DNA from: an uncultured Pelagibacteraceae bacterium
GTDB taxonomy: Bacteria > Pseudomonadota > Alphaproteobacteria > Pelagibacterales > Pelagibacteraceae
Assembly: GCA_902580945.1 (NCBI GenBank)
Contig: CACHML010000006.1
Span: forward strand, 16,943-80,942
Direction of reading: 5' to 3'
DNA: 64,000 nt
Under the pieces are notes generated by a model. It searched no databases, had not been told where the DNA came from, and was given only the letters and a program-made list of their open reading frames with translations. Shown here piece by piece: positions 13,090 to 63,668 of the stretch (its first letter is position 1; the number at the start of each line of letters is the position of its first letter). Made by a program: the position numbers and the translations under genes.

Positions 13090-13100
13090 ATAACAAAGTT

Positions 13101-42194: not shown

Positions 42195-43205
42195 TCAATA
42201 AATTAGTTTTTCAAACTTTTTCGACTTTATAGATTTCATTGCTCCCTCTGCCAATATAATTGATTTTCTTCCATCTTCAAAAACTGCTCTAGGTTTAATA
42301 TTTTTTCTAGAAAATTTTACTAGATCGAATAATTGAAGTTTAAAAGCCTCGGAATATCTCTCAATAAAGAAGTGAAGAAGAGGTGATTTACTGTTTGTTG
42401 AGCTTTTTGAAAAATAATTTATTTCATCGTTTCTTTTATTCTCTGAAACTAGCATTCCTTTATTCCCAAATAATTCTACTCTTTGATCATATCCAAAGCT
42501 ACAATGTCTTGAATTTGTTATAATACATTGCACCCCTTTTTTAGATTTGAGTATTGTAGTTGCCAATTCATAATCATTAATTTTATTAAAACGTTTATCC
42601 GATAAGTTACTGCCCATAGCAAAAATTGATTGGAATTCGTCTTTTCCTAAATAATATCTTGCAAGATCAAAATCGTGAATCATCATATCTTTAAATATCC
42701 CACCTGAACTTTTTAGATATTTAAGCGAAGGAGGAGAGGGATCCCGGCTAGTAATTATAATTTTTTCTAATCGTCCGATTTTTTGTTTTAGATGTCGTTT
42801 TAATGAATGGTGTCCAATGTCATATCTCCTATTGAAACCTATTTGCACTCTTGGTTTAAATTTTTTTATCCTTTTTAGACAAGAATTAATTTTTTTTATA
42901 TTCAGATCTAATGGTTTTTCACAAAAAATAATTTTATTTTGTTTTACACCTTGCTCAATAAATTTTAAATGCGTAGGTGTGCTTGACGCAATAAATATAC
43001 AGTCAATGTCTTTATCATTGAAAGCTAGATCAGGCTTATTTATTGAAGTGACATTATATTTATTAGATATTTTTTTTAATAAATCTTTGTTTAGGTCAAA
43101 GACATATTTTAATTTAAAGTCACTATTTTCGATTAAATTTTTTGCATGCATTTGGCCAATTCTGCCAAGACCAAGCAAAGCAACTTTTATTTTATTTTTG
43201 TCCAC
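42195..43205 (-). CDS. iolG: inositol 2-dehydrogenase-like Gfo/Idh/MocA oxidoreductase
   Basis: LGLGRIGQMH Rossmann motif. FCEKPL and VQIGFNRRYD blocks match the recalled B. subtilis IolG (FCEKPL, VQVGFMRRYD). Confidence 0.75.
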   Translation of the reverse strand: MDKNKIKVALLGLGRIGQMHAKNLIENSDFKLKYVFDLNKDLLKKISNKYNVTSINKPDLAFNDKDIDCIFIASSTPTHLKFIEQGVKQNKIIFCEKPLDLNIKKINSCLKRIKKFKPRVQIGFNRRYDIGHHSLKRHLKQKIGRLEKIIITSRDPSPPSLKYLKSSGGIFKDMMIHDFDLARYYLGKDEFQSIFAMGSNLSDKRFNKINDYELATTILKSKKGVQCIITNSRHCSFGYDQRVELFGNKGMLVSENKRNDEINYFSKSSTNSKSPLLHFFIERYSEAFKLQLFDLVKFSRKNIKPRAVFEDGRKSIILAEGAMKSIKSKKFEKLIY

Positions 43206-44332
43206 GCTTTTCTTTTATTTGAAATTTTACACGCTTCAATAAACTTTGCAGTTTCCAGCCCTTCATATTCATTTGGAAAAAACCACCTTTTTTTAGCTTT
43301 TGTTCTTAATGATTCTGCAAATTCTTTGTAAATGTTTGCAAAAGCATCTAGATAACCCTCTGGATGTCCAAATTTAATTCTTGAAAATTTTTTTGATAAT
43401 TCTGCATTAAAAAAACCTCTTTCTAAAAATTTTACAGCACCTTTTAATGGATTAAATTTAAGATAACCTGGATCATTTTGAACCCATTCTATGCTGCCTT
43501 TTGTGCCAAAAATCCTAAATCTTAAACCATAAACACCGCCTCTTGCCATAACACTTGTCCAAAGTAAGCCTTTTGCATTGTTATTAAAGTTGATCATTAC
43601 TTGAGCATTGTTATCCATTTTAACAGTTTTTGAAACTTGTTTGATATCAGCAAATACATTTCTACCTTTTAATCCAGAAACATAACATGCTATGTGATAA
43701 GCGTGAGATCCAATCTCATTTAAAACCGCTGAGGTTCCAACTATTTTTTTATTTATTTTCCATTTTAATATTTTTTTTGCATTTTTTTTGTTAACTATTT
43801 TTCCATCAGTCCAGTCTTGAACATACTCTACATTAACATATTCAACTTTTCCTATCTTCCCTTTTTCAACTAATACCTTTGCCTCTCTAACCATCGGATA
43901 TGCTGAATAATTATGAGTTAAAGCATACTTTATATTTTTATTTGATTTAATTTTTTTAAAAAGTTTTTTTGCTTGTGATAGATCACCTGTAAATGGCTTG
44001 TCAGATATTATATGAATATTTTTGTCTATAAATTTTTCTGCAATAACTTGGTGACTTGAAGGAGGAGTCATAATCGCCACGACCTCAATACCATCAAATC
44101 TTAGTGCCTCTTTATCAGCCATCTCTTGATAATTTGAGTAACATCTGTCTTTATCAATTCCTATTTTTTTGCCGAAAGTCTTTGAAATATTTGAATTTCT
44201 TGAAAAAACTCCTGAGACAATTTCATATTCGTCATCAAATCTTGAGGAAATTCTATGGACATGTCCTATCCATGATTTTGGACCACCGCCAACAATGCCT
44301 AATTTAATTTTTTTGCCTTTAATTAATCTCAT
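43187..44332 (-). CDS. Gfo/Idh/MocA-family oxidoreductase
   Basis: Start reassigned to the ATG at 44332 (MRLIKGKKIKLGIVGGG...). The longer tracked ORF would overlap iolE and encodes no recognisable sequence. SDKPF motif. Confidence 0.75.
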   Translation of the reverse strand: MRLIKGKKIKLGIVGGGPKSWIGHVHRISSRFDDEYEIVSGVFSRNSNISKTFGKKIGIDKDRCYSNYQEMADKEALRFDGIEVVAIMTPPSSHQVIAEKFIDKNIHIISDKPFTGDLSQAKKLFKKIKSNKNIKYALTHNYSAYPMVREAKVLVEKGKIGKVEYVNVEYVQDWTDGKIVNKKNAKKILKWKINKKIVGTSAVLNEIGSHAYHIACYVSGLKGRNVFADIKQVSKTVKMDNNAQVMINFNNNAKGLLWTSVMARGGVYGLRFRIFGTKGSIEWVQNDPGYLKFNPLKGAVKFLERGFFNAELSKKFSRIKFGHPEGYLDAFANIYKEFAESLRTKAKKRWFFPNEYEGLETAKFIEACKISNKRKAWTKIK

Positions 44333-44361
44333 GATCAAATATCTTAGCAAATATAAAAAAT

Positions 44362-45264
44362 ATGTCAGTAAAATTAGGGATAGCACCAATAGCGTGGAGC
44401 AATGATGACATGCCTGAACTAGGTGGAGACACTCCTCTTGAACAATGTTTATCAGAGGCAAGTCAGGCTGGATATATAGGTATAGAGTCAGGTGGAAAAT
44501 TTCCAAAAACATCCATGGAATTATTACCAAAACTAGAAAAGTATAATTTAAAATTATGTTCTGGATGGTACAGCGGGAATCTTAGAAAAAATTCTGTTGA
44601 AGAAGAAAAAAAATTAATTCAAAACCAGCTTCAATTATTTAAAGACTGTGAGGCTCCATGTATTGTATTTGCTGAAGTCTTTGAGTCAATACAAGGCGAT
44701 CCAAAAAAAAAACTATCTAGTAGACCAAAAATGTCCAATGATGAATGGAAAGATTATTGTGTAAAAATATCTGAACTTGCAAAATATCTTGAAGATGAGG
44801 GTATGCCATTAGCTTACCACCATCACATGGGTACAGTAATAGAAACGGAGGAAGAAACTATTAGATTGCTAGAAAATACAAGTGACAGCGTAAAATTAAC
44901 TTTAGATACTGGTCATATGCTATTTGCTCGAGGAAATTCTATTAATATAATCAATAAATTTAAAGAAAGAGTAATCCATATTCACTGCAAAGATATTAGA
45001 GAAGAAGTATTAAAAAAAGCGCTATCTGAAGATTTAAGTTTTAGAGATGCTTTTTTAGAAGGTGCTTTTACTGTGCCAGGCGATGGGTGTATCGACTATA
45101 AACCTCTGTTTGATATTTTGAAAAAAAATAATTACCAGGGTTGGTTGGTAGTGGAGGCTGAGCAAGATCCAAAAAAAGCAAATCCTCTTGAGTATGCAAT
45201 TATGGGTTATAAATATATTACAGATACTTTAAAGAAATCAAATTTAGAGATTGATAAACTATAA
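44362..45264 (+). CDS. iolE: 2-keto-myo-inositol (inosose) dehydratase
   Basis: GIAPIAWSNDDMPELG, YHHHMGT, TVPGDGCIDYKP and VVEAEQDPKKANPLEYA all match blocks of the recalled B. subtilis IolE. Confidence 0.9.
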   Translation: MSVKLGIAPIAWSNDDMPELGGDTPLEQCLSEASQAGYIGIESGGKFPKTSMELLPKLEKYNLKLCSGWYSGNLRKNSVEEEKKLIQNQLQLFKDCEAPCIVFAEVFESIQGDPKKKLSSRPKMSNDEWKDYCVKISELAKYLEDEGMPLAYHHHMGTVIETEEETIRLLENTSDSVKLTLDTGHMLFARGNSINIINKFKERVIHIHCKDIREEVLKKALSEDLSFRDAFLEGAFTVPGDGCIDYKPLFDILKKNNYQGWLVVEAEQDPKKANPLEYAIMGYKYITDTLKKSNLEIDKL

Positions 45265-46215
45265 TTTTACTTTTTTACTATCTTCAAGTTTGCCATCAAA
45301 AAAATCAAAAATATTTTGTATAGTTTCTATTGCCATTCTAGTCATGCACTCTTCAGTAAACGCTGCTGCATGAGGGCTAAGGAAAACTTTTTCATTTTTT
45401 AATAATGGATTGTCAGCTTCTGGAGGCTCTACTTCAAATACATCGATACCTGCTCCAAAAATTAGGTTCTCCTTTAATGCTCTATCTAAGTCTTTCTCAT
45501 TTATAATTCCACCTCTTGCAGCATTTATGATGATGCAATTTTTTTTCATAGTTTTAAGAAGTTCATAATTTATGATATTTTTAGTTTGATCAGTTAAAGG
45601 TATATGGAGTGACACAGCATCCATATCTTTTATTGTTTCTGATAAATCCTCAACTTTTTTTCCACCCATTTTGCTTATTGTTTCTGCATCTACAAATGGA
45701 TCATAAACAAAAACATTCATTTCAAATCCTAAACATCTTTTAATCAATGCTTTTCCAATTCTTCCAAAACCAGCTATAAGAATATTTTTGTTCCAAATCT
45801 CTATTGTTTTTGGAAGCTTATTTCTCTCAGTAAATTTTCCACTTCTGACTGATTGATCATACATACTTTTTCTTTTTGATATACTTAAAAGCATGAAAAG
45901 AACATGTTCTGCAACTGCTACAGCGTTTGCTGTTGCAGTTATCGCCACATCGATATTTCTTTTTTTACAGCTATTTAAATCAATATTGTCGTAACCAACT
46001 CCATGTCTAGAAATTATTTTAAGTTTTTTTGCATTTTCAATTGCTTCTGCAGGCAAAATTGATGTTCTTAAAGACACTGCATCAGCATCTATAATTTTTT
46101 GTTTAACGTTTTCAACGCTTAAATCCTCAACTACCTCGTAAGTATAGTTACTATTACTTTTTAATAATTCCATACCTTTTTCATGAATAGGTTGGACAAT
46201 GAGAATTTTTTTCAT
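45259..46215 (-). CDS. D-isomer-specific 2-hydroxyacid dehydrogenase (PGDH-like)
   Basis: GFGRIGKAL NAD motif, NAARGG, DVFEVEPP and SPHAAA catalytic-His region. Confidence 0.8.
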   Translation of the reverse strand: MKKILIVQPIHEKGMELLKSNSNYTYEVVEDLSVENVKQKIIDADAVSLRTSILPAEAIENAKKLKIISRHGVGYDNIDLNSCKKRNIDVAITATANAVAVAEHVLFMLLSISKRKSMYDQSVRSGKFTERNKLPKTIEIWNKNILIAGFGRIGKALIKRCLGFEMNVFVYDPFVDAETISKMGGKKVEDLSETIKDMDAVSLHIPLTDQTKNIINYELLKTMKKNCIIINAARGGIINEKDLDRALKENLIFGAGIDVFEVEPPEADNPLLKNEKVFLSPHAAAFTEECMTRMAIETIQNIFDFFDGKLEDSKKVKL

Positions 46216-46230
46216 AATTTAAAAATGAAA

Positions 46231-47220
46231 TTATATTAATCTAGCAAGATCTCTTTTACTATTTTTAAATGTTGGAAGTGGATATTTAAATGCATATTTT
46301 CTTGGTATACATTTATTTTTAGCTTTCTCCCATAAAGAGATCCATTGCTTATAATTATGAATAGTAATATTTTTTTTATTTCTACTTCTCACGTAAAAAT
46401 TTGGTAGAGGTTTTCTACCTGATGGAGTTCCAGCTCTGTTATATCTTAAGTCAGCGCTTATTCTAAAATCGTTAGATCTATTAGGTAAAGAACAATGTAT
46501 AGAGTGTTTGTGTAAAATAATTATATCACCCACATTTGCTTCCAGAAAAATTGGCTTAAATTTATCAAGTAATTTACTACCTTTTATCTCGACCTGACCT
46601 TTATATCCAGACACATGATTTAATAAACCCAGTTTGTTTATTTCTTTAACGGTAATCATGCATCCGTTATTTTTGGTAGTTTTTGTAAATGGTATCCAAA
46701 CGGTCACCATATCTGTCAATCTTTGTCCAACAGATGATAATACTGCTGCGTCTTGGTGCCAAGGAGTTCTACCTGAAAGTCCATCATGAACAGAGTGTCT
46801 AGGCAGTTTACTTTCTGGTTGTTTAATTCTTGTATTCTGAACAGGATTAGAAAGAATCTCAGATCCTATTAATTGTTCTACAACATCTAAAATTTTTTTA
46901 TGGTTTATTAAGTTCCATAAAGATTGTGATGCAAAGTAATCACTATCTTTTTTTACATTATCTCTAGGTAGTCTGGTATTAAAATGTTGGTCAAGATCAT
47001 AAATATTTAATTTTGATATATAGGTATATTTTCTTTTAAAATCATATTTAAAAACTTTTTCTCTCATATGTCTGGGTGCAAACTTATTAACTAGATTGTC
47101 CATTACATATTCCATATCGTTTAAGATAGGCTTTAAATCTTTGTTGAAATTAAGAATATTTTTTACCCTAAGGTATCCATCTCTATCTAAAATTTTCTTT
47201 AATTTGGTACTAACTTGCAT
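46231..47220 (-). CDS. PhyH-family Fe(II)/2-oxoglutarate dioxygenase
   Basis: DGYLRVKN start, WHQD (HxD facial-triad part), distal HKHSIHCSLPNRS segment. Confidence 0.7.
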   Translation of the reverse strand: MQVSTKLKKILDRDGYLRVKNILNFNKDLKPILNDMEYVMDNLVNKFAPRHMREKVFKYDFKRKYTYISKLNIYDLDQHFNTRLPRDNVKKDSDYFASQSLWNLINHKKILDVVEQLIGSEILSNPVQNTRIKQPESKLPRHSVHDGLSGRTPWHQDAAVLSSVGQRLTDMVTVWIPFTKTTKNNGCMITVKEINKLGLLNHVSGYKGQVEIKGSKLLDKFKPIFLEANVGDIIILHKHSIHCSLPNRSNDFRISADLRYNRAGTPSGRKPLPNFYVRSRNKKNITIHNYKQWISLWEKAKNKCIPRKYAFKYPLPTFKNSKRDLARLI

Positions 47221-48085
47221 GTATACAAGATTTTAGCAGATAATTTGAATCATGAAAAGATGTAAGCATTCTTTTTTTCGTCGCAACTATATGTGGGTGA
47301 TATTCAAAATTTTTATATTTCCATATAACAGGTTTATTAAATGCATAACTTCCATAAATAAAAAATCTTTTTGGACAGTTTTTTTCCTTAAATCGTGTTA
47401 CCCCATGATAAGAATTAGGAGTAGATTTAAAGAAAATTACGCTTCCCTTTTTTGGTGTAAACTCCACTAATTTATCAAGTTCATTAATTTTGGGAAATCT
47501 TCTAAAACTTTTTCTAAGGTTTCTGTTAGCTTTTTTTTTGTATAGAGTAAGAGACCCTCCATTTTTTTTTGGTATATCAGTTAAATATATCAAAAAATTA
47601 TATATTCTATTGATATCATCTCTATGCGGTCTCAATCTATACCCTCCTTTAGATACTGAAAAATCAATATCTAGATTTAAATTCGGGTTTTTATAATTTT
47701 TACCTAGCAATCTTTTTAGCTCTTTAGAATTTACTTTTCTTTTTAATGTATATTTTTTTTTATTAAATATTTTTGGTTTAAACAAACTTTCCCATGTATT
47801 TGCCTTAAACTCTGTTTTAAATTTATTATCAATTTTCTTATAAAATGATTCTGTATTGAAAGTAGCAAAAAGTTTTTTTGAGATTTTAGAAGTTGAGATA
47901 TATTTGTTGAAATTTTTTGACCCTTTGTTAATCCTACTTCTGCCACCCATAATCATATCATCGAAATTTTTTGAATTACTTATTTCTTTAATTAACGAAT
48001 TGCAGACTTTTTTACTGATTATTTGTTCTCCAACAATGACCGGGAAGTTTGATTTAATTTTCTTTAGTTTGTTAATTTTCAGCAT
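47210..48085 (-). CDS. 2OG-Fe(II) oxygenase-superfamily protein (prolyl-hydroxylase-like fold)
   Basis: RPHRDD (HxD), FLIYL...GGSLTLY, P-x-x-GSVIFF and distal NSYHGV pattern. Confidence 0.55.
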   Translation of the reverse strand: MLKINKLKKIKSNFPVIVGEQIISKKVCNSLIKEISNSKNFDDMIMGGRSRINKGSKNFNKYISTSKISKKLFATFNTESFYKKIDNKFKTEFKANTWESLFKPKIFNKKKYTLKRKVNSKELKRLLGKNYKNPNLNLDIDFSVSKGGYRLRPHRDDINRIYNFLIYLTDIPKKNGGSLTLYKKKANRNLRKSFRRFPKINELDKLVEFTPKKGSVIFFKSTPNSYHGVTRFKEKNCPKRFFIYGSYAFNKPVIWKYKNFEYHPHIVATKKRMLTSFHDSNYLLKSCIHAS

Positions 48086-49030
48086 TTAGCTGTACATACC
48101 CTCTTTTACTTTAATCATTTTGTACATAAGATCATTTAAAGGTGTGGCTATTCCATGTTTTTTTCCTATTTTAGATACAGCTCCACTTATGAAATCAATT
48201 TCAGTTTTTCTTTTGTAAAGTACATCAAAAGCCATTGAGGACTTGTTTGTTTGTTTTGAATCAACAATTTTATTAAACATAAATAAACACTCATCTTCAG
48301 AAACATTAACGCCATCTGCTAAAGCAACTTTTCTTGTTTCTAAAATAATCTCTTTACCTAAACTTCTAGATACGTCATTGGCATTATTATTTATGTAAAG
48401 ATCAGTATGATGTAGATCAAAAATAGCTGAAAGTGGACCAATTGCGGTTAAAGCAAAAAGTTTCATCCATTTTCTTTTTTTTACATCCTCAGCTGCAATC
48501 ATTTCTAAATTATGCGCTGTAAATGTGTCTGCAATTTCTGTTATTCTATCTGTTATTCCACCATCATATTCTCCAATCCAAGAAGGTAAAGCTGCATGAT
48601 TCATAATATGACCAGGGCCTAAGATATTTGATGCTTGAGTTGTTGTTCCTCCAATTACTTTTTCATCGCCAACAATACTTTTAATTATAGCTTCATGTCC
48701 AATTCCATTTTGAAAAGACATAAAAACTGTTTTATCTCTAATAATGTTTTTAATACTTTTTAAAGCTGGTTCTAGAGCTGTTGCTTTACACATTACTATT
48801 ACAGCATCAACTTTTCCAATTGTAGATGGATCTGATGTTGCAGGTATTCTTATAAATCTATCACCACCATGGCCATCCATTTTTAGACCATTTTTATTAA
48901 TTTCTTCAACATGCTCTTTCCAAACATCAATGAGCGTTACATTAAGACCTTTTTCTGCTAGAAGACCTCCAAATAGACAACCCATTGCTCCTGCACCAAG
49001 AACTGCAACTTTTAAATCTTTATTATTCAT
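48086..49030 (-). CDS. 2-dehydropantoate 2-reductase (KPR/ApbA) family oxidoreductase
   Basis: VLGAGAMGCLFG Rossmann motif, FQNG, KWMKL lysine region, SSMAFDVLYKRKTEID C-terminal motif. Confidence 0.8.
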   Translation of the reverse strand: MNNKDLKVAVLGAGAMGCLFGGLLAEKGLNVTLIDVWKEHVEEINKNGLKMDGHGGDRFIRIPATSDPSTIGKVDAVIVMCKATALEPALKSIKNIIRDKTVFMSFQNGIGHEAIIKSIVGDEKVIGGTTTQASNILGPGHIMNHAALPSWIGEYDGGITDRITEIADTFTAHNLEMIAAEDVKKRKWMKLFALTAIGPLSAIFDLHHTDLYINNNANDVSRSLGKEIILETRKVALADGVNVSEDECLFMFNKIVDSKQTNKSSMAFDVLYKRKTEIDFISGAVSKIGKKHGIATPLNDLMYKMIKVKEGMYS

Positions 49031-49093
49031 ATTTAAAATCGAAATATATTTATGTAAAAAAATTATGCAATATATTATGTAACTAATTAATAT

Positions 49094-50062
49094 ATGAAAT
49101 TAAAAATAGAAAAAGGAATTTTCAAAAAATTTGAGTTAAAAGAAATATCAAACGCATTAGAAAAAGGTCTGTCAAAGAATTATGACAGTGTGAAAGCAGA
49201 AGTAATTGATTGCCCAAATTTAAGAAATTGGGATTGTCCGTCTGAAGGTATGAGTGGTAACCAAAGGATAATCGATGTTGGAGGAGAGCCCTACATGCAC
49301 GATCCTAAATATCTTGGAACTGAATTTGATTATGCTGAAATCTCAAAAATGATTGGATCAGAAAAATCATATGCACTTGGAGCAGGATCTGGAGCAATGT
49401 CTTGCCTCGATGGACACTGTGGAGAACTAGTTATAAATGAAAACTTAATAACAAAAGAAAATAAGTCTTTAATTGCCAGGGTAGGGAAAGATAAAGAATG
49501 TATAGTAGAGGACTATACTGCAAGCAAACATGGTGGGCTTGGTAACATTTATTATTCAGATGGTGTTAAAGGAAAAGTTATTTATTTAAACATAAAAAAA
49601 AGAACTGGAAATCAAGGTTCATTACCTCAATCAATTAGAACAGCACTTTCTGAAAATCTTAAAATTGGGTATAAAAATCATATTGCTCTTGCTGGTGTAT
49701 TTAGAGTTTTGAATGGAAAAATAAGATCACACGTACAACCAGATTATAAGGATATAAAACATGAATATTATGATCCACAATTGATGAAATGCACAAAAGA
49801 TTTTCTACAATTTTATGAGCCTGTTGGACCAAAATTACAATGCTATACTGTTTTATGGACTGGTGATCCAACGGGAGGAGAATTAAATTTAAGAGAGTCT
49901 GGAGAGCATACTCACTTCCACTCATATGAGCATAAAAATGACGCTGGACATTATCATTTTGACGTATCACCTGATGAAATTGAATATGAGGGATACTTTA
50001 ATATTGCACAAGAAGTACATAGAGTGAATAATATCTATAAAGAATTAAAAAATATAAAATGA
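49094..50062 (+). CDS. DUF1907 protein (homolog of eukaryotic C11orf54-type Zn enzyme)
   Basis: VIDCPNL, DVGGEPY, LGAGSGA, KKRTG and the His cluster EHTHFHS...GHYHFD..PDEIEYEGYF align with my recollection of human C11orf54. Confidence 0.7.
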   Translation: MKLKIEKGIFKKFELKEISNALEKGLSKNYDSVKAEVIDCPNLRNWDCPSEGMSGNQRIIDVGGEPYMHDPKYLGTEFDYAEISKMIGSEKSYALGAGSGAMSCLDGHCGELVINENLITKENKSLIARVGKDKECIVEDYTASKHGGLGNIYYSDGVKGKVIYLNIKKRTGNQGSLPQSIRTALSENLKIGYKNHIALAGVFRVLNGKIRSHVQPDYKDIKHEYYDPQLMKCTKDFLQFYEPVGPKLQCYTVLWTGDPTGGELNLRESGEHTHFHSYEHKNDAGHYHFDVSPDEIEYEGYFNIAQEVHRVNNIYKELKNIK

Positions 50063-53104: not shown

Positions 53105-53159
53105 AATTTTTATTTTATGGTTTATTAGTTGAATTTTTGAGGAGAATATAACTAGAAAA

Positions 53160-55004: not shown

Positions 55005-55013
55005 TTTCCTTAT

Positions 55014-56171
55014 ATGAACAAAGTTTTCAAAGTTGGTCTTATTGGTTGTGGACATATTGCAGAAACTTATTTTAGAGCAGAGAAATATTTTAATAATATC
55101 AAAATAATTAAATGCGCAGATATTAATTTAAAAGCTGCAGAAAAATGTTCTAAAGAATATGGAATCAAATTTTTAAGTGTAAATGAAATTCTAAAAGATC
55201 AAGAAGTAGAAATTATTTTAAATTTAACTATCCCAAAAGCTCATTACGAAATTTCAAAGAGAGCTTTATTAAATGGTAAACATGTTTACTCAGAGAAACC
55301 ATTGGCAATTAATTTAAAGGATGGAAAAGAACTTTTAAAAATTTCTAGAAGGAAAAAGTTATATCTTGGTAATGCACCAGATACATTTTTAGGAGGCGGA
55401 ATTCAAAAATCAAAAGAGCTAGTTGAAAAAAATATAATTGGAAAAATAAAATTAGGTAATGCTGTTTTTGCCTTTCCTGGAATTCAATCATATCACCCTA
55501 ATCCAGAACCATGGTTTGCAAAACTTGAAGGAGGTCCTGTAATTGATATGGGACCATATTACATTACAGCTTTAGTAAACCTTTTAGGACCTGCAAAGAA
55601 AGTTAGTGGGAGAATAATAAATGGTTCAAAATACAGAACAATTGGAATTGGACCAAAAAAAGGTAGAAAATTTAAAGTTAATTGCCCAACAACCTATCTA
55701 TCTACAATCACCTTTAAAAATAACACAGTAATTAGATTGACGTTATCTTTTGATGTCATTGCTCACCAAAGAAATCATATTGAGCTATATGGTGAAAAAG
55801 GTTCAATGATTGTCCCTGATCCAAATATGTTTGGAGGATCAGTATTCACATGTAAAAAACTTGGAGATAATTGGAAAGAATTTAAAACTACAAAAATGCA
55901 TTTAGGTAAAATTAATATAAGAACACAAAGTTCAAGAGCAAATGAAGCTCCAACTAATGCAAACTATAGAGGTGCAGGACTTTCAGAAATGGCTTATTCA
56001 ATCGAAAAAAAAAGAAAACATTTATGCAATGGTGAAATTTCTTTGCATGTCCTTGATATAATTACTTCAATTATGAAAGCTTCAAAGTCTGGTGTTAATC
56101 AATCAATAAATACTGACTGTGTTAAACCAAAAAAGTTTACAAATATTGATATAAGAAAAATAATTAGATAG
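55014..56171 (+). CDS. Gfo/Idh/MocA-family oxidoreductase
   Basis: VGLIGCGHIA Rossmann motif and SEKPLA motif, 385 aa. Confidence 0.8.
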   Translation: MNKVFKVGLIGCGHIAETYFRAEKYFNNIKIIKCADINLKAAEKCSKEYGIKFLSVNEILKDQEVEIILNLTIPKAHYEISKRALLNGKHVYSEKPLAINLKDGKELLKISRRKKLYLGNAPDTFLGGGIQKSKELVEKNIIGKIKLGNAVFAFPGIQSYHPNPEPWFAKLEGGPVIDMGPYYITALVNLLGPAKKVSGRIINGSKYRTIGIGPKKGRKFKVNCPTTYLSTITFKNNTVIRLTLSFDVIAHQRNHIELYGEKGSMIVPDPNMFGGSVFTCKKLGDNWKEFKTTKMHLGKINIRTQSSRANEAPTNANYRGAGLSEMAYSIEKKRKHLCNGEISLHVLDIITSIMKASKSGVNQSINTDCVKPKKFTNIDIRKIIR

Positions 56172-56180
56172 AGCAAAGAT

Positions 56181-57203
56181 ATGATTAAACCTATTGTAAT
56201 TTCTGATCCTTATCCAAGAACTTTGGATTTAATTTTTACTAAGACAAAATTAAAAGAACTAAAAAACAAATATAAAATAATAGTTGCTCCAAAAAAAAAT
56301 AAAAAAAAATTTTATGAAAACAATATTGGCAAGGCAACATTTATCATGGGTCAACCTAATTTAGACAAACATTTGTTGTCTAAGGCATCAAAATTAAAAT
56401 GTATTATAAATGTAGAAAGTAATTTTATGGATAATTTAGACTATGATTATTGTTTCAAAAAAAATATTCATGTTATTGCAACTTCACCAGTATTTTCAAA
56501 GCCAGTAGCTGAAATAGCTTTAGGTATGACATTGTCTCTTTTAAGAAATATTCACAATGCACATTTTGATTTTATTAAATCTAAAGAGAAATATGGTTTA
56601 GAAAGTAATTTAGAAGCTTCACTTCTGACAAATAAAAAAATTGGGTTAATAGGGTTTGGAGACTTAGCAAAATCTTTATATCCTTTACTTTTGCCATTCT
56701 CAAAAAATATTAATGTATATGATCCATGGATACCTAAAAATAAAATAAAAAAAATTGGATTTAACCCAATTAATTTGAATAAAATGTTTAGTAGTTGTGA
56801 AGTAATTTATGTATTAGCCACAATCACTAAAAAGAATAAACATTTAATTGATAAGAAATTATTAAATAAAATGAAATCTGGCACTGTTTTTATTTTAATG
56901 AGTAGAGCAGCAATAGTTAATTTTAAAGATTTGATTAAGAGAATTAAAAAGGGAGATATTTATGTCGCAACCGATGTCTTTCCAGATGAACCAGTAAAAA
57001 AAAATGATCCAATAAGAAAGTTAAAAAATACACTATTTTCTGCTCATAGAGCTGGTGCTTTAGAAGAAGCTTTTTATAATATGGGTGAAATAGTTTTGAA
57101 AGATATGAAGCTTATTTTAAAAAATATGCCACCTAAATTCTGTAAAAGAGCTCAAAGAAAAACTGTAAAACTCTTAGCCTCAAAACCAGTTGCAATTAAC
57201 TGA
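56181..57203 (+). CDS. D-2-hydroxyacid dehydrogenase-like NAD-binding protein
   Basis: IGLIGFGDLAKSL, SRAAIV, TDVFPDEP and SAHRAG (catalytic His region). Confidence 0.7.
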   Translation: MIKPIVISDPYPRTLDLIFTKTKLKELKNKYKIIVAPKKNKKKFYENNIGKATFIMGQPNLDKHLLSKASKLKCIINVESNFMDNLDYDYCFKKNIHVIATSPVFSKPVAEIALGMTLSLLRNIHNAHFDFIKSKEKYGLESNLEASLLTNKKIGLIGFGDLAKSLYPLLLPFSKNINVYDPWIPKNKIKKIGFNPINLNKMFSSCEVIYVLATITKKNKHLIDKKLLNKMKSGTVFILMSRAAIVNFKDLIKRIKKGDIYVATDVFPDEPVKKNDPIRKLKNTLFSAHRAGALEEAFYNMGEIVLKDMKLILKNMPPKFCKRAQRKTVKLLASKPVAIN

Positions 57204-57225
57204 TTTTTTTATATTTTCTTAGATT

Positions 57226-57976
57226 ATGTCATCTGCCAATCAATTATTATTAGAAGCCAAAAATGTTACAAAATACTTTGGCACAATTACTGCTCTTGAA
57301 AACGTAAACCTTAAAATTCATGCAGGTGAATGCTTAGGAGTTGTAGGAGACAATGGAGCAGGAAAAACAACATTAATGAAGGTTTTATCTGGCCTATATA
57401 AACCAAGTGCAGGCTCTTTACATTTTGAAGGAAAAGAAAAAGTTTTAGAAAGTCCCAGAGATTCTCAAAACTTAGGTTTAGAAATGGTTTATCAAGATTT
57501 AGCTTTAGCAGGCAATCTTCCAATAGGCGAAAATATTTTTTTAGGCCGTGAACCAACTACTAATTTGGGATTATTAAAGTTTCTTGATTATAAAAAAATA
57601 AAAGAACTTACAGAAGCACATCTAGGCAAACTTAAAATAAATGTAAAGAGTGCAGATCAAAAAGTCGAGGAACTTTCAGGTGGACAAAGACAAGCAGTTG
57701 CAATTGCAAGATCAACAGCATTCAATGCAAAAGTAGTGATTATGGACGAACCAACAGCAGCATTAGCTATTAAAGAAGTTGGTAAGGTTTTGGATTTAAT
57801 AAATAGTCTGAAAAAAAACTGGCGTAGGCGTAATTGTGATCAGTCATAGAATGGATGATATTTTTGCAGTTTGTGACCGAGTAATGGCATTGTTTCAAGG
57901 AACGAATTTTGCAGAATCTGAATTATCAAACACTTCAAGAGATGAAGTTATTGGATGGATAATGGGTAAAAAATAA
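57226..57976 (+). pseudogene. sugar ABC transporter ATP-binding protein (single NBD), reading frame broken by one extra base in an A8 run at 57811-57818
   Basis: Frame A carries Walker A GDNGAGKTT, LSGGQRQ and Walker B VVIMDEPT, then stops at 57849. The +1 frame from 57821 reads GVGVIVISHRMDDIFAVCDRV... (H-loop) to a TAA at 57974-57976. An A7 run would give LKKTGVGVIVISHR. Confidence 0.8.
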
Positions 57977-57978
57977 TC

Positions 57979-58992
57979 ATGGACTCAAAAGATCAAGATA
58001 AAGACTCTTTATATCTAAAACTCATTCCTTACTTTGAGAAATACGGAATATTATTATTATTAGTTATAATGATAGTTGTTATGCATTTTCTTCAACCTGA
58101 TGTTTTTTTATCATGGAGAAATGTAACAAATGTTTTCAAACAAATATCTTGGCAGTCAATGCTAGCTTTAGGAGTATTTATGGTGATTGTAACTGCTGGT
58201 ATAGATCTTTCAGTTGGATCTATAATGATGTTGTCACTAATGATACTTGCAATTGTCGCTAAGGCTGGTGCTCCATGGTATATTGTTGTTATCACACCTC
58301 TTATAGCTGGATTTCTATGTGGGTTATTTAATGGTTTAGGGATTACATTACTAAGGATGCCTCATCCGTTTATAATGACACTAGGTACATTATATATATT
58401 TAGAGGTACAGGTAATTTAATTTCTGGCGGAACTCCGATAAGTGGCTTCACAGATGAAGTGAGATACCTTGGGCATGGAAGAATTGATTTAACTTGGCTT
58501 GGTTTAGAAAAGTCGCAATACCTTCCTGTTAGTTTAGTTCTTATTGCAATTGTCTATATAATATTTTGGATATTCATGAACAAAACCCGGACAGGGAAAT
58601 GGATATATGCAATTGGTGGAAATCCAAATGCAGCAAGAGCCTCAGGTATTAATGTAAATAAAATTCTTGTAATAGTTTATTCGCTTTGTGGTTTTTTATC
58701 TGGTATTGGAGCTTTAATTCTAGCTGGTAGAACAGACTCAGGTTATCCAAATGCAGGATTACAGTCTGAATTAGACGCTATTGCAGCATGTATTATCGGA
58801 GGCGCTAGTTTTTTTGGAGGAAGAGGCACTGTTTTAGGCGTTTTTGCAGGAGTGATGATAATGGGAATTTTAAGAAATGGTCTTAATTTGATGGATGTGA
58901 GTTCGTTTTGGCAACAAGTATTAATTGGATCAATTATAGTACTAGCTGTTTATGTTGATGTATTGAGAAGAGATTTCGGGACAAGAAAATAA
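57979..58992 (+). CDS. ribose/monosaccharide-type ABC transporter permease
   Basis: RbsC-like BPD_transp_2 pattern: ~9 TM helices, GIDLSVGS and GGNPNAARASGINV motifs. Confidence 0.9.
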   Translation: MDSKDQDKDSLYLKLIPYFEKYGILLLLVIMIVVMHFLQPDVFLSWRNVTNVFKQISWQSMLALGVFMVIVTAGIDLSVGSIMMLSLMILAIVAKAGAPWYIVVITPLIAGFLCGLFNGLGITLLRMPHPFIMTLGTLYIFRGTGNLISGGTPISGFTDEVRYLGHGRIDLTWLGLEKSQYLPVSLVLIAIVYIIFWIFMNKTRTGKWIYAIGGNPNAARASGINVNKILVIVYSLCGFLSGIGALILAGRTDSGYPNAGLQSELDAIAACIIGGASFFGGRGTVLGVFAGVMIMGILRNGLNLMDVSSFWQQVLIGSIIVLAVYVDVLRRDFGTRK

Positions 58993-59097
58993 AACACGCG
59001 TTAGTTGAAACTAAAAATAGTTACCATTGTAACAGTTGAATTTTTTTAAAAAATTTTATTAAATTGAGGTTTAATAATTATTAAAGGGGATAAATTA

Positions 59098-60021
59098 ATG
59101 AGTAAATTGTTTAAATTAATAGGTGCTTTTACAGCATCTGTTTTTCTTCTTTTAAGTATTACAACAAGTGTTAGTGCTGAGAAGAAAATTTTATTTAGTA
59201 TAAAAGGACCTGGTTCAGGAAACCCATTTTGGGCTTCAGTGACTAAAGGTGCAGAAGAAGAAGCTGCAAAATTAGGTGTAAAACTAATTTTGATTGCTCC
59301 ACCACAAGAGGGAGATGTTCAAGCACAAATTAACCAAGTGGAAGATCAACTTGCAAAAGGTGTTGACGCTCTAGCTCTTGCACCAGGAGATCCAAACGCT
59401 TTTGCTCCAATAGTAGACGATGCTATTAAGAGTGGAGTTCCAGTTGTATTTGTTGATACAAAAGGAATTAACGAAGGTGTTACTTTTATAGGAACAAATA
59501 ATATGAATGGTGCAGAATTAGCTGCAAAATTTATTTGTGATAAAACTCCAAAAGGATCAGATGTTGCAATTCTTACAGGGATTGAGTCTCAATCAACTGC
59601 ATTATTAAGAAGAGATGGTGCAATTAAAGGATTTAAAAATTGTGGTTTAAATCTTGTTGCTACTCAAACTGCTGAATGGGATACTGCAAAAGGTAGATCG
59701 GTTACTGAGTCAATCATTTTGAAAAATCCTAACATCAAAGCAATATTTGCTTCTAACGATAATATGGGCTTAGGTGCAATGCAAGCTCTTAAGGATGCTG
59801 ATATGAATGATGTAATAGTTGTTGGTTTTGATGCTACTCCTGATGCTGCTACAAGTATCTTAAAAGGAGAGATGACTGCAACAATAGCTCAGTTCTCATA
59901 CAACATGGGTGCATATGGAGTAAAATATGCTCTTGAGTTAGCTAATGGTGGAAGTATCGATCCTAATATTGATACTGGTACACAATTAGTAACAAAAGCA
60001 AACGCTAACGATTTTAAATAA
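59098..60021 (+). CDS. periplasmic monosaccharide-binding protein (RbsB-like)
   Basis: Signal peptide and a type I periplasmic binding fold pattern (GNPFW, VVFVD, NDNMGLGA, VVGFD). Strong AGGGGA ribosome-binding site upstream. Confidence 0.9.
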   Translation: MSKLFKLIGAFTASVFLLLSITTSVSAEKKILFSIKGPGSGNPFWASVTKGAEEEAAKLGVKLILIAPPQEGDVQAQINQVEDQLAKGVDALALAPGDPNAFAPIVDDAIKSGVPVVFVDTKGINEGVTFIGTNNMNGAELAAKFICDKTPKGSDVAILTGIESQSTALLRRDGAIKGFKNCGLNLVATQTAEWDTAKGRSVTESIILKNPNIKAIFASNDNMGLGAMQALKDADMNDVIVVGFDATPDAATSILKGEMTATIAQFSYNMGAYGVKYALELANGGSIDPNIDTGTQLVTKANANDFK

Positions 60022-60040
60022 TCTTTAGAAAATTAAAATT

Positions 60041-60074
60041 AAAAGGGTGGAATTTTATTTCACCCTTTTTTTTT
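60041..60074 (+). terminator. rho-independent terminator after the binding-protein gene
   Basis: AAAAGGGTG-(11 nt loop)-CACCCTTTT stem followed by a run of nine T in total. Confidence 0.75.
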
Positions 60075-60092
60075 ATGTAATATAGTACTTCA

Positions 60093-60557
60093 ATGTTAAT
60101 TAATATTAATCCAATTTTAAATCCTGAACTTTTATATCAATTAAGAGCAATGGGCCATGGTGATAAATTAGTTTTAACAGATGCTAATTTTCCTGCTTAT
60201 TCACACTCTATAAATAATAAAGTAATTAGACTAGATGGTGTTAATATCTATGAAGCTGCAAAAGCTATTCTTTCAGTATTTCCACTGGATAGTTTTATAG
60301 ATTCTTCTGCTGAAAGAATGCAAGTTGATAATAAACCAGATGAATTAACTGAGTGTCACAAAGATTTTATAAAAGCTGTGAAAGAAACTTCTGGAGAAAA
60401 TTGGAAAGTTGGTTCAATCGAGAGGCAAGAATTTTATAAAGTAGCAAAAAAATCTCAATTAATCGTATCTACTTCTGAAACAAGGCCTTATGGATGTTTT
60501 ATACTAACAAAAGGAGTAATTAAACCAGATGGTAGCGTTTGGGTTCTTGATAAATAA
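60093..60557 (+). CDS. RbsD/FucU-family sugar mutarotase/pyranase
   Basis: LNPELLYQLRAMGHGDKLVLTDANFP motif (HGD) and ~150 aa length. Confidence 0.85.
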   Translation: MLININPILNPELLYQLRAMGHGDKLVLTDANFPAYSHSINNKVIRLDGVNIYEAAKAILSVFPLDSFIDSSAERMQVDNKPDELTECHKDFIKAVKETSGENWKVGSIERQEFYKVAKKSQLIVSTSETRPYGCFILTKGVIKPDGSVWVLDK

Positions 60558-61471
60558 TGAACTCTATATGCATTTTTGGAGTATTCGTAGCTGACCTATG
60601 TTTCTTTGCTGAAAAAATTCCTGTTAAAGGAGAAACAGTTTTAGGTAAAAATCATATAATTGGACCAGGAGGCAAAGGATCTAATCAAGCGATTGCTGCT
60701 GCAAGACTTGGTGGAAATGTGAATTTTATTACTAAAATAGGAAATGATCAAAATGCTAAGATGGCCCTCAAGCTTTATAAAGAAGCTGGAATTAATACAG
60801 GTTCAATAATCCAAGATCCAAATCAGTCAACAGGTGTTGCAGGTATAATGATAAATGAAAAAACGGGGGATAATGCTATCAATATTGTACCAGGAGCAGC
60901 TGGGTCGATATCTAATAAAGATATTGATAACAATATTGATTTTATAAAAAAATCAGAAATTTTTTTAACGCAACTAGAAACACCTAATGAAGTAACCAGT
61001 TATGCATTAAATAGAGCAAAAGAGACAGGCTCTGTTACAATTTTTAATCCAGCTCCTGCATCAGATATTAAAGAAAGTGATTTTAAATGTATTGATTATT
61101 TTACTCCTAACGAAACTGAAGCAAGTTTTTATTTAGGTAAAAAGGTTGATAGTAAAACAGAAATTGAAGAAGCTGCAAAAACTTTTTTAGCAAAAGGAGT
61201 AAAAAATATAGTTATAACATTAGGCCCAAAAGGTCTTTACTATGCAAATTCTGATGAAAGTTTTTTTATAGATGTTTATAGTTTAAAGGATGAAGTAATA
61301 GATACAACGGGAGCAGGTGATGCTTTTAATGGAGCATTTGCTTATGCTTTATCCAATAATTTAAAAATCAAAGATGCTTTAGAATTTTCAAATAAAGTAG
61401 CTGCAATTTCCACAACAAAAGCAGGCGCAGCAAATTCAATGCCTAGTATTAATGAAGTAGAAACTTACTAG
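60557..61471 (+). CDS. rbsK: ribokinase (PfkB family)
   Basis: GGKGSNQA, NPAP and DTTGAGDAFNGAF motifs. 1-nt overlap with the upstream mutarotase gene. Confidence 0.85.
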   Translation: MNSICIFGVFVADLCFFAEKIPVKGETVLGKNHIIGPGGKGSNQAIAAARLGGNVNFITKIGNDQNAKMALKLYKEAGINTGSIIQDPNQSTGVAGIMINEKTGDNAINIVPGAAGSISNKDIDNNIDFIKKSEIFLTQLETPNEVTSYALNRAKETGSVTIFNPAPASDIKESDFKCIDYFTPNETEASFYLGKKVDSKTEIEEAAKTFLAKGVKNIVITLGPKGLYYANSDESFFIDVYSLKDEVIDTTGAGDAFNGAFAYALSNNLKIKDALEFSNKVAAISTTKAGAANSMPSINEVETY

Positions 61472-62647
61472 TTATTCGATTATTTTGAAATCTGATTTAA
61501 ATTTATCAGTAATAGCTAAACCCAGACCAGGTTTATTGTCGTCCAAGTTAATAAATCCGTTTTCAGGAGCTGGGTCACCTTCAAAAATATAGTAAAATAG
61601 CTCATTACCAATTTCTACATCGTGCACAGGAAAAAATTCGGATATAGGACAATTAAAGTTAGACATTGTTAAATGATAATTATGCATTTGCCCAGCATGT
61701 GGAATAACTGGTACTTGATAAGCTTCTGCTAACGCATTTATTTTACTCGCAATAGTAAAACCACCAACTCTATTATTATCATATTGAATATAACTAACTG
61801 CTTTTAAATCTAACAATTGTTTAAATCCAAATAAGTTGAATTCATGTTCTCCACCAGATATTGGAATAGCATTCATATTATTTAGTTCAGCATAACCATG
61901 AATATCGTCTGCTATAACAGGTTCTTCTAACCATCTAGGATTAAACTTTACTAATTTAGGAATCATTCTTTTAGAGTAGTCTAAATTCCATCCCATATAA
62001 CATTCCATCATAAGGTCTGTGTCATAACCAATCACTTCTCTAACAGCCTCTGCTAGTTCCAAATTTTTCTTCATTCCATCAGGTCCGTCTTTTGGTCCCC
62101 ATCCAAATCTCATTTTAAACATTTTAAAACCTTGATTAACGTAACTTTCAGCTTCTTTTTGTAGTTCTTTTATTGGTTGGCTATAAAGTTTTGAGGCATA
62201 GACTGGAATTTTCTCTTTAGTTCTTCCACCTAATAATTTGAAAACTGGTTTATTTGTAATTTTTCCCATTATGTCCCACAAAGCAATATCAATTGCTGAA
62301 ATAGCGACCATTCCTAATCCTCTTCTACCCCATGCATGAGTTCTTCTGTACATTTTTTCCCAAATATACGCATAATCAAAAGGGTCCTCACCAATAACTA
62401 AAGGAGTTAAATAAGTATCAATGGTTTTTTTTACTAATTGTGGTGCAAGTGCTGCATTTCCAATTCCAATAATTCCATCGTCTGTTTCAACTTCACATAT
62501 TAACCATTCATGAAATCTAAAAGATCCCATTGCATCTGATTTTTCAAATAAAAGGTCAGAAGCATTTGTACAAAAATTATTTTGCGGTGGAACAGTTTTG
62601 CCATTCCATTGGTAAACTCTTGTTCTTATACTTTTAATCTTTGTCAT
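61472..62647 (-). CDS. enolase-superfamily (mandelate racemase subgroup) acid-sugar dehydratase
   Basis: Start reassigned to the ATG at 62647 ([11 protein letters not shown]...). [25 protein letters not shown] and SGGEHE metal-ligand pattern. Confidence 0.8.
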
Positions 62648-62669
62648 TTTTTTTTTATATTTTGCAATT

Positions 62670-63668
62670 TCATAATCTATTTTTATTTTCAGCCATTGTA
62701 AGTGCAATTTTAAACGAATTCAAAGTTGGTTCTAAATTTGCTATATTTTTACCAGCAATATCAAAAGCTGTACCATGGGCAGGAGTTGTAATGGGTACAG
62801 GAAGACCTCCTTGGACGGTTACACCTCGGTCAAATCCAAACGCTTTTAACCCAGATTGAAGTGCATCATGATACATTCCAACAATACAATCGTGATTTCC
62901 GTTTTTATATGCTGTTATAAATGAAGTATCACAAGGTAGAGGACCATCAGCATTTATTCCCAATTTTTTTACCTCTTCAATTGCTGGTATAATTTCATCT
63001 TTTTCCTCTGTACCAAATTCAGCGTGAGGATTAAGTGCCTGAACAGCTACTCTTGGTTTTTTTATACCATTTAGTTTCATTGCTTCATTAATCAGTTTAA
63101 TTGGTTCGATTATTTTTTCTTTTTTTATATTATTTGGGACTTCTCTAATTGGAATATGTGATGTTACTCGCGCAGTCCAAAAATTATCAATTACATTAAA
63201 TTCACAAAAAAAATTTTTAACTTTAAGCTTTTCAGCCATTAAGTGTAATTCATCAGAATATCTATTACCACCAAGTTTAAGACTTGTTTTATTAAATGGA
63301 CCAAAATTTATTGCATGAATTTTTTTTTCTTTAGCTAATTCTAAAGCAATATTAAGAGCCGACAGAACACTTTCACCTGATTCTTTTGAACATTCTGACA
63401 GCTTATAATCATGATTTTTGCCTTGAGTAATGTCTAGAAAAAATTTATTACTTTTTTTAAAATCTATTTTGTCAAATTCATCTACATAATTAATATTATG
63501 TTTGTTGCCTGAAATTTCATTTCCATTTTCTAAAATTTTTCTCTCTCCAATTATAATTATATTAGCTTTATTTGTAATATCCTCGCTCAATAACTTTGAG
63601 ACCAATTCGGGTCCTATGCCCGAAGGGTCACCAAGTAATAATGCAATATTAATTTTATTAAGAGACAT
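62670..63668 (-). CDS. PdxA-family NAD-dependent 4-phospho-hydroxyacid dehydrogenase, second paralog (PdxA2-like)
   Basis: [29 protein letters not shown] and [12 protein letters not shown] mirror the PdxA motifs but in a sugar-acid context. Confidence 0.8.

Follow-up and report, generated by a model that had tools for sequence, protein, structure and literature searches.

A probable variant inositol cluster without a regulator in SAR11 bacteria and a possible oxidative lower branch of inositol catabolism

The locus

Genes of inositol catabolism form an island in the genome of an uncultured SAR11 bacterium. The island lies at positions 42195-63668 of a 64 kb Pelagibacteraceae sequence (assembly GCA_902580945.1, contig CACHML010000006.1), and this whole stretch is referred to as the window. 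Its DNA is AT-rich (G+C of about 22-34%), and the 22 genes of the island are tightly packed, with a largest intergenic gap of about 130 bp (Table 1). The proteins were scanned with NCBIfam and Pfam models. Three of them, IolG, IolE and IolD, belong to the first steps of myo-inositol catabolism. The core of the island around these genes is probably the regulator-less SAR11 form of a widespread variant inositol cluster.

An earlier, sequence-only reading of this DNA had named the three iol genes, and the family models bear it out. IolE and IolD are clearly above their equivalog cut-offs, and IolG is borderline, just below its own (Table 1). The same reading recognised no IolB, IolC, IolJ or IolA in the island, a result that model scans and tblastn now extend to the 64 kb window. 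IolB had no NCBIfam match among the open reading frames (ORFs) of the island. Bona fide IolB and a 636-aa IolC-DUF2090 fusion, both from Paracoccus (locus L090), served as tblastn queries. IolB was found neither in the window nor within 10 kb of iolD in 80 SAR11 loci. The fusion protein gave only a weak match in the window, at 22% identity, between its PfkB part and the ribokinase, and no iolC was detected within 10 kb of iolD in the 80 loci. The only PfkB kinase of the island, which had been described as ribokinase-like, passes the ribokinase equivalog (315 bits against 300) and reaches 100 of the 300 bits required for IolC. In model scans of the window there was no ORF of the class II fructose-bisphosphate aldolase type to which IolJ belongs. 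As to the CoA-acylating IolA/MmsA, the window has a single gene of the aldehyde dehydrogenase (ALDH) family, and its best matches are succinate-semialdehyde dehydrogenase (SSADH), BADH and 2-oxoglutarate-semialdehyde dehydrogenase (KGSADH). The IolO model scored only 27 bits, on IolE.

The absence of a regulator from these 22 kb, also part of the sequence-only reading, was confirmed by the NCBIfam and Pfam scans, in which no ORF for a DNA-binding protein or transcription factor was found in 42195-63668. A search of the whole window with Rfam at gathering thresholds gave no match, and hence no riboswitch that could replace the regulator. A tRNA scan of the window was likewise negative, so there is no tRNA integration site.

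Much of the remaining inventory agrees with what had been listed: the ALDH, an HpcH aldolase, an enolase-superfamily dehydratase, a second PdxA, two D-2-hydroxyacid dehydrogenases (2HADH) and a PanE-like reductase are all encoded. Three further Gfo/Idh/MocA oxidoreductases (GFO) had been counted, and there are two, GFO2 and GFO3. Two 2-oxoglutarate (2OG)/Fe(II) oxygenases, a DUF1907 protein, a PanB-like protein, a CUT2 ABC transporter and a FucU/RbsD-like protein were missing from that list.

Table 1. Features of the island, with their frequency in SAR11 loci (loci with the gene/loci reaching far enough) and the identity of the SAR11 proteins to those of plasmid modules.
Feature	Position	Strand	Block	Basis or remark	SAR11 loci	Identity to module proteins (%)
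iolG, inositol 2-dehydrogenase	42195-43205	-	core	TIGR04380, 345 bits (cut-off 355)		36-43
GFO2, Gfo/Idh/MocA oxidoreductase	43187-44332	-	core	likely start ATG at 44332; mechanical ORF to 44530	50/54	30-37
iolE, myo-inosose-2 dehydratase	44362-45264	+	core	TIGR04379, 412 bits (cut-off 290)	54/55	41-50
2HADH_a, D-2-hydroxyacid dehydrogenase, PGDH/McyI type	45259-46215	-	core		55/56	36-41
PhyH dioxygenase	46231-47220	-	optional insert	Pfam/NCBIfam
2OG-Fe(II) oxygenase	47210-48085	-	optional insert	Pfam/NCBIfam
PanE-like ketoacid reductase	48086-49030	-	optional insert	Pfam/NCBIfam
DUF1907 protein	49094-50062	+	optional insert	Pfam/NCBIfam
PanB-like protein	50059-50874	+	optional insert	Pfam/NCBIfam
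HpcH/HpaI-family class II aldolase	50871-51662	-	core	PF03328	75/75	45-52
SSADH/KGSADH-like non-acylating ALDH	51662-53104	-	core		79/79	40-44
iolD, 3D-(3,5/4)-trihydroxycyclohexane-1,2-dione hydrolase	53160-55004	+	core	TIGR04377, 785 bits (cut-off 715)		46-53
GFO3, Gfo/Idh/MocA oxidoreductase	55014-56171	+	core	family-level matches only	71/71
2HADH_b, second D-2-hydroxyacid dehydrogenase	56181-57203	+	core, usually present		64/68
CUT2 sugar ABC transporter ATPase	57226-57976	+	ribose-type uptake	frameshifted
ABC permease	57979-58992	+	ribose-type
Sugar-binding protein	59098-60021	+	ribose-type
FucU/RbsD-like protein	60093-60557	+	ribose-type
Ribokinase (PfkB)	60557-61471	+	ribose-type
Enolase-superfamily dehydratase	61472-62650	-	acid-sugar		46/55
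PdxA2-type paralogue	62670-63668	-	acid-sugar		48/54
TctC, start only	from 63740	+	acid-sugar	leaves window

A conserved core in a mosaic island

A scan with IolD of the species-representative genomes in GTDB returned at least 553 related stretches. Gene counts were taken from the best 80, with IolD identities of 87-100%, all of which come from single-cell or metagenome-assembled genomes of Pelagibacteraceae. A search for contigs encoding IolD gave only two metagenome contigs, of 4.5 kb. The proteins of the window were mapped on the 80 loci with flanks of up to 10 kb, and only loci reaching far enough enter the denominators. The ALDH, the HpcH aldolase and one 2HADH (2HADH_a) stand beside iolD in essentially every such locus (Table 1). 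The core consists of iolG, GFO2, iolE, 2HADH_a, HpcH, ALDH, iolD, GFO3 and usually 2HADH_b.

The 21.5 kb are a mosaic of four modules: the iol core, an optional insert, a block resembling the ribose (rbs) system and an acid-sugar block. The five-gene insert (PhyH, 2OG oxygenase, PanE-like, DUF1907, PanB-like) is present in about 36 of 57 SAR11 loci (~63%). It is missing from a whole clade with an 87%-identical IolD, where ALDH, HpcH and 2HADH_a follow each other contiguously in this order on the minus strand. Some loci with the core, among them L075, L049 and L080, have no block of ABC transporter, FucU and ribokinase. The sequence-only reading had taken the whole 22 kb for one mosaic, possibly non-phosphorylative route. 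The local lack of the canonical lower genes stands and such a route is plausible, but the insert, the rbs-like block, the dehydratase and PdxA2 vary independently of iolGED among strains, an outcome that this reading had itself named as a refutation, and the unity of the 22 kb as a single route is not supported.

The clade with the 87%-identical IolD has two further features. A 166-aa ORF without a Pfam match lies between iolE and 2HADH_a (L050, 6229-6729; also in L049, L052, L056 and L080) and has no counterpart in the window. A second CUT2 transporter adjoins iolG, and the best match of its binding protein in the PDB is 4RU1, presumably a myo-inositol complex. In the single-cell genome of L080, iolG is split in two ORFs of 119 and 214 aa (4287-5287), which suggests an occasional disruption or an assembly error.

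Could the island encode a truncated or decaying pathway that oxidises inositol in part, to gain reducing power, or could it be on the way to loss? The split iolG of L080 would fit such decay, as would the ABC ATPase of the window, in which an extra A in an A8 run (57811-57818) causes a frameshift and leaves an ORF of 207 aa. All 15 of the 15 closest SAR11 loci are one base shorter at this run and have an intact ORF of 249 aa, and deletion of one A restores the 249 aa in the window. Either the homopolymer was misread in sequencing or the gene is a pseudogene in this strain. The core genes, on the other hand, are intact and 77-100% identical over the 80 genomes, which belong to several SAR11 species clusters. 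This is the signature of purifying selection, and decay is a most improbable explanation.

Plasmid-borne modules in other proteobacteria

The aldolase, the ALDH and IolD were run by tblastn against 72,556 plasmids. Many of the IolD matches nearest to the SAR11 protein (46-53% identity) have an aldolase match 2.6-12 kb away on the same plasmid record. Eleven such loci were compared, from eight genera: Rhizobium (Rhizobium leguminosarum, R. daejeonense and Rhizobium sp. NXC24), Shinella (two strains), Klebsiella (Klebsiella aerogenes), Paracoccus (Paracoccus alcaliphilus), Jiella, Qingshengfaniella, Acidiphilium and Pantoea. In the typical arrangement, the genes GFO-2HADH-HpcH-ALDH-iolG, whose stop and start codons frequently overlap, are transcribed divergently from iolD-iolE(-SDR). 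The order ALDH-HpcH-2HADH on one strand, divergent from iolD, is shared by the window and loci L085, L087-L093, L095 and L096. In the window, the ALDH (53104>51662) and HpcH (51662>50871) genes are separated from 2HADH_a (46215>45259) by the insert. Identities between the SAR11 and module proteins are given in Table 1; for iolG they refer to genes annotated as such (PGAP) in the syntenic modules.

ALDH, aldolase and 2HADH are linked to iolG, iolD and iolE in two proteobacterial classes and share an operon with iolG, and their role in inositol catabolism is argued chiefly from this conserved linkage. The chance that this trio is the lower inositol branch in SAR11 is put at about even. No iolB or iolC was found within 15 kb in ten of the eleven plasmid loci, and no dehydratase is conserved across the eleven modules. 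A Photobacterium locus, by comparison, is a purely canonical iol cluster. Its IolD also served to examine whether the module-linked IolDs form a distinct subfamily, an idea that was dropped since the canonical Photobacterium protein is as close to the SAR11 IolD (48%) as the module IolDs are (46-53%).

CUT2 ABC transporters and an RpiR regulator accompany the plasmid modules. Each of the ten annotated modules outside SAR11 has RpiR, and because of this the absence of a regulator in SAR11 reads as streamlining.

Some neighbours of the plasmid modules might handle products. They include a CoA-acylating methylmalonate-semialdehyde dehydrogenase (mmsA) and a phosphoenolpyruvate synthase (ppsA) in Klebsiella (L089, 1-3306), a pyruvate carboxylase in R. 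daejeonense (L093, 5997-9431) and a DUF4147 protein, presumably a glycerate kinase, in Paracoccus (L090, 1-1143). These neighbours fit the products predicted below. Oxygenases also recur beside the module. PhyH-family dioxygenases occur in Shinella (L087, 7038-8147; L088, 6987-8096) and Pantoea (L096, 2359-3501) and are not close orthologues of the SAR11 PhyH. Genes for a sterol/fatty-acid desaturase or a MocE-type ferredoxin (MocD/E-like) occur in R. leguminosarum (L085, 3240-5399) and Jiella (L091, 1-2973). Cyclitols with O-methyl groups or other modifications, similar to rhizopine or pinitol, may thus be among the natural substrates.

Enzymes of the predicted lower branch

The ALDH is below every NCBIfam equivalog cut-off, the best match being SSADH with 500 of 646 bits. 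Both catalytic motifs, Glu (ELSGHSP) and Cys (GQVCISP), are conserved in it, and it is taken, for this reason, as a hydrolytic enzyme rather than one of the CoA-acylating IolA/MmsA type. The nearest solved structures in the PDB are an SSADH and a KGSADH. These relatives act on omega-aldehyde acids, that is, aldehydes with a distal carboxylate.

The aldolase is a member of PF03328, yet it falls short of the equivalog cut-offs for HpaI (178 of 369 bits), GarL (152 of 407 and 156 of 393) and RhmA (110 of 441). Its best match in the PDB is SwHKA from Sphingomonas wittichii (206 bits, about 41% identity), against 143 bits for HpaI and 126 for GarL. SwHKA is an HpcH enzyme that takes hydroxypyruvate as a donor (PMC10099721). 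A homologue search with the aldolase gave SAR11 sequences at 81-98% identity, with no outgroup context among the matches listed.

The best NCBIfam match of 2HADH_a is phosphoglycerate dehydrogenase (PGDH; 275 bits), and its best matches in the PDB are the PGDH 1WWK and McyI. In every plasmid module the gene after the aldolase encodes its counterpart, a hydroxyacid dehydrogenase. PGDH and McyI, its nearest characterised relatives, work oxidatively and convert 2-hydroxy acids with a distal anion to 2-oxo acids. The second enzyme, 2HADH_b (best PDB match 4HY3, 301 bits), is a candidate hydroxypyruvate reductase. GFO2 has family-level matches only in NCBIfam (best PDB match 3V5N, 305 bits) and corresponds to the conserved GFO of the plasmid modules.

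The following route is proposed. IolG would oxidise myo-inositol to scyllo-inosose, and the extra GFO enzymes would perhaps feed in other isomers. IolE would dehydrate scyllo-inosose, and IolD would open the ring to give 5-deoxy-D-glucuronate. Up to this point the scheme follows the established functions of the three families, of which two proteins pass the equivalog models and one nearly does. The later steps are deduced from gene content. The ALDH would act as a 5-deoxyglucuronate dehydrogenase and oxidise the aldehyde at C1 to yield 5-deoxyglucarate. The C2 hydroxyl of this diacid would be oxidised by 2HADH_a to a 2-oxo acid, which the class II HpcH aldolase would cleave between C3 and C4 into hydroxypyruvate and malonate semialdehyde. 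Hydroxypyruvate could then be reduced to glycerate by 2HADH_b or another reductase. Such a branch would take the place of the isomerase IolB, the kinase IolC and the phospho-aldolase IolJ, and would proceed without ATP and without phosphorylated intermediates. All conserved genes find a use in this scheme, which requires neither a dehydratase nor a kinase nor ATP. Its exact chemistry is held with less confidence than the general role of the trio. The wider claim, that SAR11 and the plasmid clusters of many Alpha- and Gammaproteobacteria finish inositol by an oxidative, ATP-independent branch that yields malonate semialdehyde with either hydroxypyruvate or pyruvate and fully replaces IolB, IolC and IolJ, is put forward tentatively, at somewhat below even chances. 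A full-text literature search found no account of this variant, of 5-deoxyglucarate, of a 5-deoxyglucuronate dehydrogenase or of inositol catabolism in SAR11; most subscription journals lie outside that search, and an earlier description is possible.

Evidence against the route and competing explanations

Several observations weigh against the proposed branch. Paracoccus alcaliphilus has the module together with iolC-DUF2090 and iolB in one cluster, so that both branches can occur together and the trio is not necessarily a replacement for the canonical one. The ALDH is up to 49% identical to proteins in other contexts, and as its closest plasmid relatives stand in unrelated surroundings, its orthology with the module ALDHs is not firm. 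The aldolase is slightly nearer to those of glucarate/galactarate clusters (53-56% identity) than to those of the iol modules and lacks the three-residue insertion of the latter. These closest plasmid homologues sit in garD/gudD clusters with a tartronate-semialdehyde reductase, and they would be expected to release pyruvate from 2-keto-3-deoxy acids, which requires a dehydratase. Pyruvate, and not hydroxypyruvate, is likewise suggested as the product by the linked ppsA and pyruvate carboxylase genes. Finally, F210 of SwHKA gives no help as a marker of hydroxypyruvate use, being His in the SAR11 aldolase and in all module and gar-type homologues. A lead from the best plasmid match of the ALDH (Phaeobacter piscinae, 48.5%) was rejected: the gene stands beside a thiamine pyrophosphate enzyme and an IlvD dehydratase, and the former is not IolD-like.

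The Paracoccus cluster, with both sets of genes, lends itself to another explanation, in which SAR11 has the genes of the canonical lower pathway (IolB, IolC-DUF2090 or IolJ, and IolA) at another place in its genome and the trio is auxiliary, serving stereoisomers, O-methyl or deoxy cyclitols or a side product. The oxygenases that recur beside the module (PhyH in Shinella, Pantoea and SAR11; MocD/E-like in R. leguminosarum and Jiella) hint at modified cyclitols and agree with this. For the Rhizobiaceae and Klebsiella, chromosomal iol genes are presumably present. In SAR11, the absence of iolB and iolC from the 64 kb window and from the vicinity of iolD in 80 genomes speaks against an auxiliary role. 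A large survey of iol genes defined the core set as lying within 10 kb and usually found the fourth gene in the same genome (PMC9430895), which argues in the same direction. A streamlined genome would, moreover, be unlikely to retain eight or nine linked genes for a side branch. An auxiliary role is judged unlikely.

The kinship of the aldolase to the garD/gudD-cluster enzymes speaks for a dehydratase variant of the route. Here the enolase-superfamily dehydratase (61472-62650), or a different dehydratase, would convert 5-deoxyglucarate to 4-hydroxy-2-oxoadipate, from which the aldolase would release pyruvate and malonate semialdehyde, as in glucarate degradation with GarL. The ppsA, mmsA and pyruvate carboxylase genes near the module on two plasmids would suit these products, and the dehydratase gene is common in SAR11 loci (Table 1). 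It was considered as the missing core step and rejected: it is absent from 9 of 55 SAR11 loci, although these keep the core, none of the plasmid modules has it, and in SAR11 it accompanies PdxA2 and TctCBA. The protein is also nearly identical in score to roseobacter enzymes from a different family context, with 692 bits to the structural-genomics enzymes 3SSZ, 3STP and 3SQS. This match and the linkage to PdxA2/TctCBA assign it to a separate pathway. The enzyme 3STP and its relatives are presumably L-lyxonate dehydratases. The dehydratase variant is considered quite unlikely.

The neighbouring blocks also raise the question of whether the aldolase and ALDH serve inositol at all. Non-phosphorylative routes of the L-rhamnose/L-fucose type employ a sugar dehydrogenase, an aldonate dehydratase, a KDR aldolase and a lactaldehyde dehydrogenase. 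HpcH and the ALDH could form such a route for a 6-deoxyhexose or pentose together with GFO3, the dehydratase, FucU and the ABC transporter, their adjacency to iolD being mere inherited synteny. Every enzyme class except a lactonase is present, the best named NCBIfam match of the dehydratase is L-rhamnonate dehydratase (219 of 393 bits), and FucU has a weak match to L-fucose mutarotase. Loci L075, L049 and L080, however, keep HpcH-ALDH<>iolD-GFO3 without the block of ABC transporter, FucU and RbsK and without the dehydratase. The modules of eight other genera have the aldolase, the ALDH and iolG in a single operon controlled by RpiR and include no rhamnonate-type dehydratase. A deoxyhexose route is very unlikely on this evidence.

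Accessory blocks and neighbouring genes

Apart from the ribokinase, the rbs-like proteins are below the equivalog cut-offs: 175 of 337 bits for the binding protein, 236 of 398 for the permease and 42 of 93 for FucU/RbsD (84 of 141 with the FucU model). The ATPase, a single-domain protein of 249 aa, is likewise below its cut-off. The binding protein resembles ribose/allose-binding proteins (150 bits) more than it does 4IRX (95 bits), a sugar-binding protein of Caulobacter that is presumably the inositol-binding IbpA.

The acid-sugar block extends the island beyond 63668, as the TctC gene begins there and leaves the window. In related loci PdxA2 is always followed by TctC-TctB-TctA. In threonate/erythronate pathways, a PdxA2-type protein is accompanied by a DUF1537 four-carbon acid-sugar kinase. 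No DUF1537 kinase was seen in the 8-10 kb downstream in these loci, where the ORFs were only partly scanned. The window contains two PdxA paralogues, 29.9% identical. One is PdxA2; the other (3110-4069) lies beside ksgA, a peptidyl-prolyl isomerase (PPIase) gene and lptD, presumably the housekeeping surA-pdxA-ksgA arrangement. In the optional insert, the score of the PanB-like protein is well under the cut-off for PanB, and the DUF1907 protein has no homologue on any plasmid of the collection.

The first 42 kb of the window carry housekeeping genes: the ksgA-pdxA-PPIase-lptD region, lptFG, purM, aspS, accBC, thiG, rne, prfB, tyrS, the SUF system with an Rrf2 regulator, and glnA. Two ORFs among them, of 992 aa (26756-29734) and 369 aa (13068-14177), have no Pfam match at E<=1e-5. 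The release-factor ORF at 25777-26763 (PCRF and RF-1 domains) has TTG as its called start codon and is short at the N-terminus. A programmed +1 frameshift is carried by prfB and would fit the short ORF.

Comparison with known pathways

IolG, IolE and IolD reach or nearly reach the equivalog scores of canonical iol systems, such as iolABCDEGJ of Bacillus subtilis and the variants of Salmonella and Caulobacter. The homologous clusters of other bacteria share RpiR regulation and a CUT2 ABC transporter with alphaproteobacterial iol clusters. Unlike the canonical systems, the SAR11 cluster has a linked hydrolytic ALDH, HpcH aldolase and 2HADH and no regulator, and IolB, IolC, IolJ and IolA were not found in the window or within 10 kb of iolD in the 80 SAR11 genomes. 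A route without IolB, IolC and IolJ is also known from Thermotoga maritima. This pathway, with IolM, IolN and IolO, begins with inositol dehydrogenase, makes no use of IolE or IolD, and leads to 5-keto-L-gluconate and tagaturonate. SAR11 differs from it in having IolE and IolD. In Proteobacteria, the IolC-DUF2090 fusion is a known alternative aldolase solution for the lower pathway (PMC9007349). This variant still needs IolB and a kinase and splits a phosphorylated intermediate, and DUF2090/IolC was not found in the window.

The glucarate/galactarate pathway of the GarL type is similar in the aldolase and in the proposed substrate, which is also a C6 2-oxo-dicarboxylate. It differs in that the SAR11 stretch lacks GarD, GudD, KdgD and tartronate semialdehyde reductase and the aldolase stays far below the GarL cut-off. 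Like the Weimberg, Dahms and non-phosphorylative L-rhamnose routes, the proposed branch would oxidise its substrate to an acid and a 2-oxo acid and use a class II pyruvate-type aldolase and an ALDH, with no ATP. In contrast to these, its substrate would be the ring-opened cyclitol 5-deoxyglucuronate, and a 2HADH is conserved instead of an aldonate dehydratase. SwHKA (PDB 6R62; PMC10099721) shares the HpcH family and is the best solved match of the SAR11 aldolase, from which it differs at F210.

Concluding remarks

If the proposed branch is correct, bacteria would have a fourth way to carry out the lower half of inositol catabolism. The large iol survey counted only clusters with three of iolB, iolC, iolD and iolE (PMC9430895); clusters of the variant type would be skipped under this rule, and automated annotation also misses them. 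The predicted enzymes, a 5-deoxyglucuronate dehydrogenase and an aldolase for a C6 2-oxo-diacid, are directly testable in vitro, and Klebsiella, Paracoccus and Shinella are tractable hosts that carry the module.

The vitamins added to one medium for the isolation of SAR11 include 6 uM myo-inositol (PMC12789548). Should the island be functional, this inositol could be an overlooked source of carbon and energy in SAR11 cultures. Other SAR11 media contain the same vitamin amendment. The carbon sources that SAR11 can use are few and ecologically important. The proposed branch, if true, would assign inositols and related algal cyclitols to SAR11 as a class of substrates, and cyclitols would be a regular carbon source for the most abundant heterotroph of the ocean.

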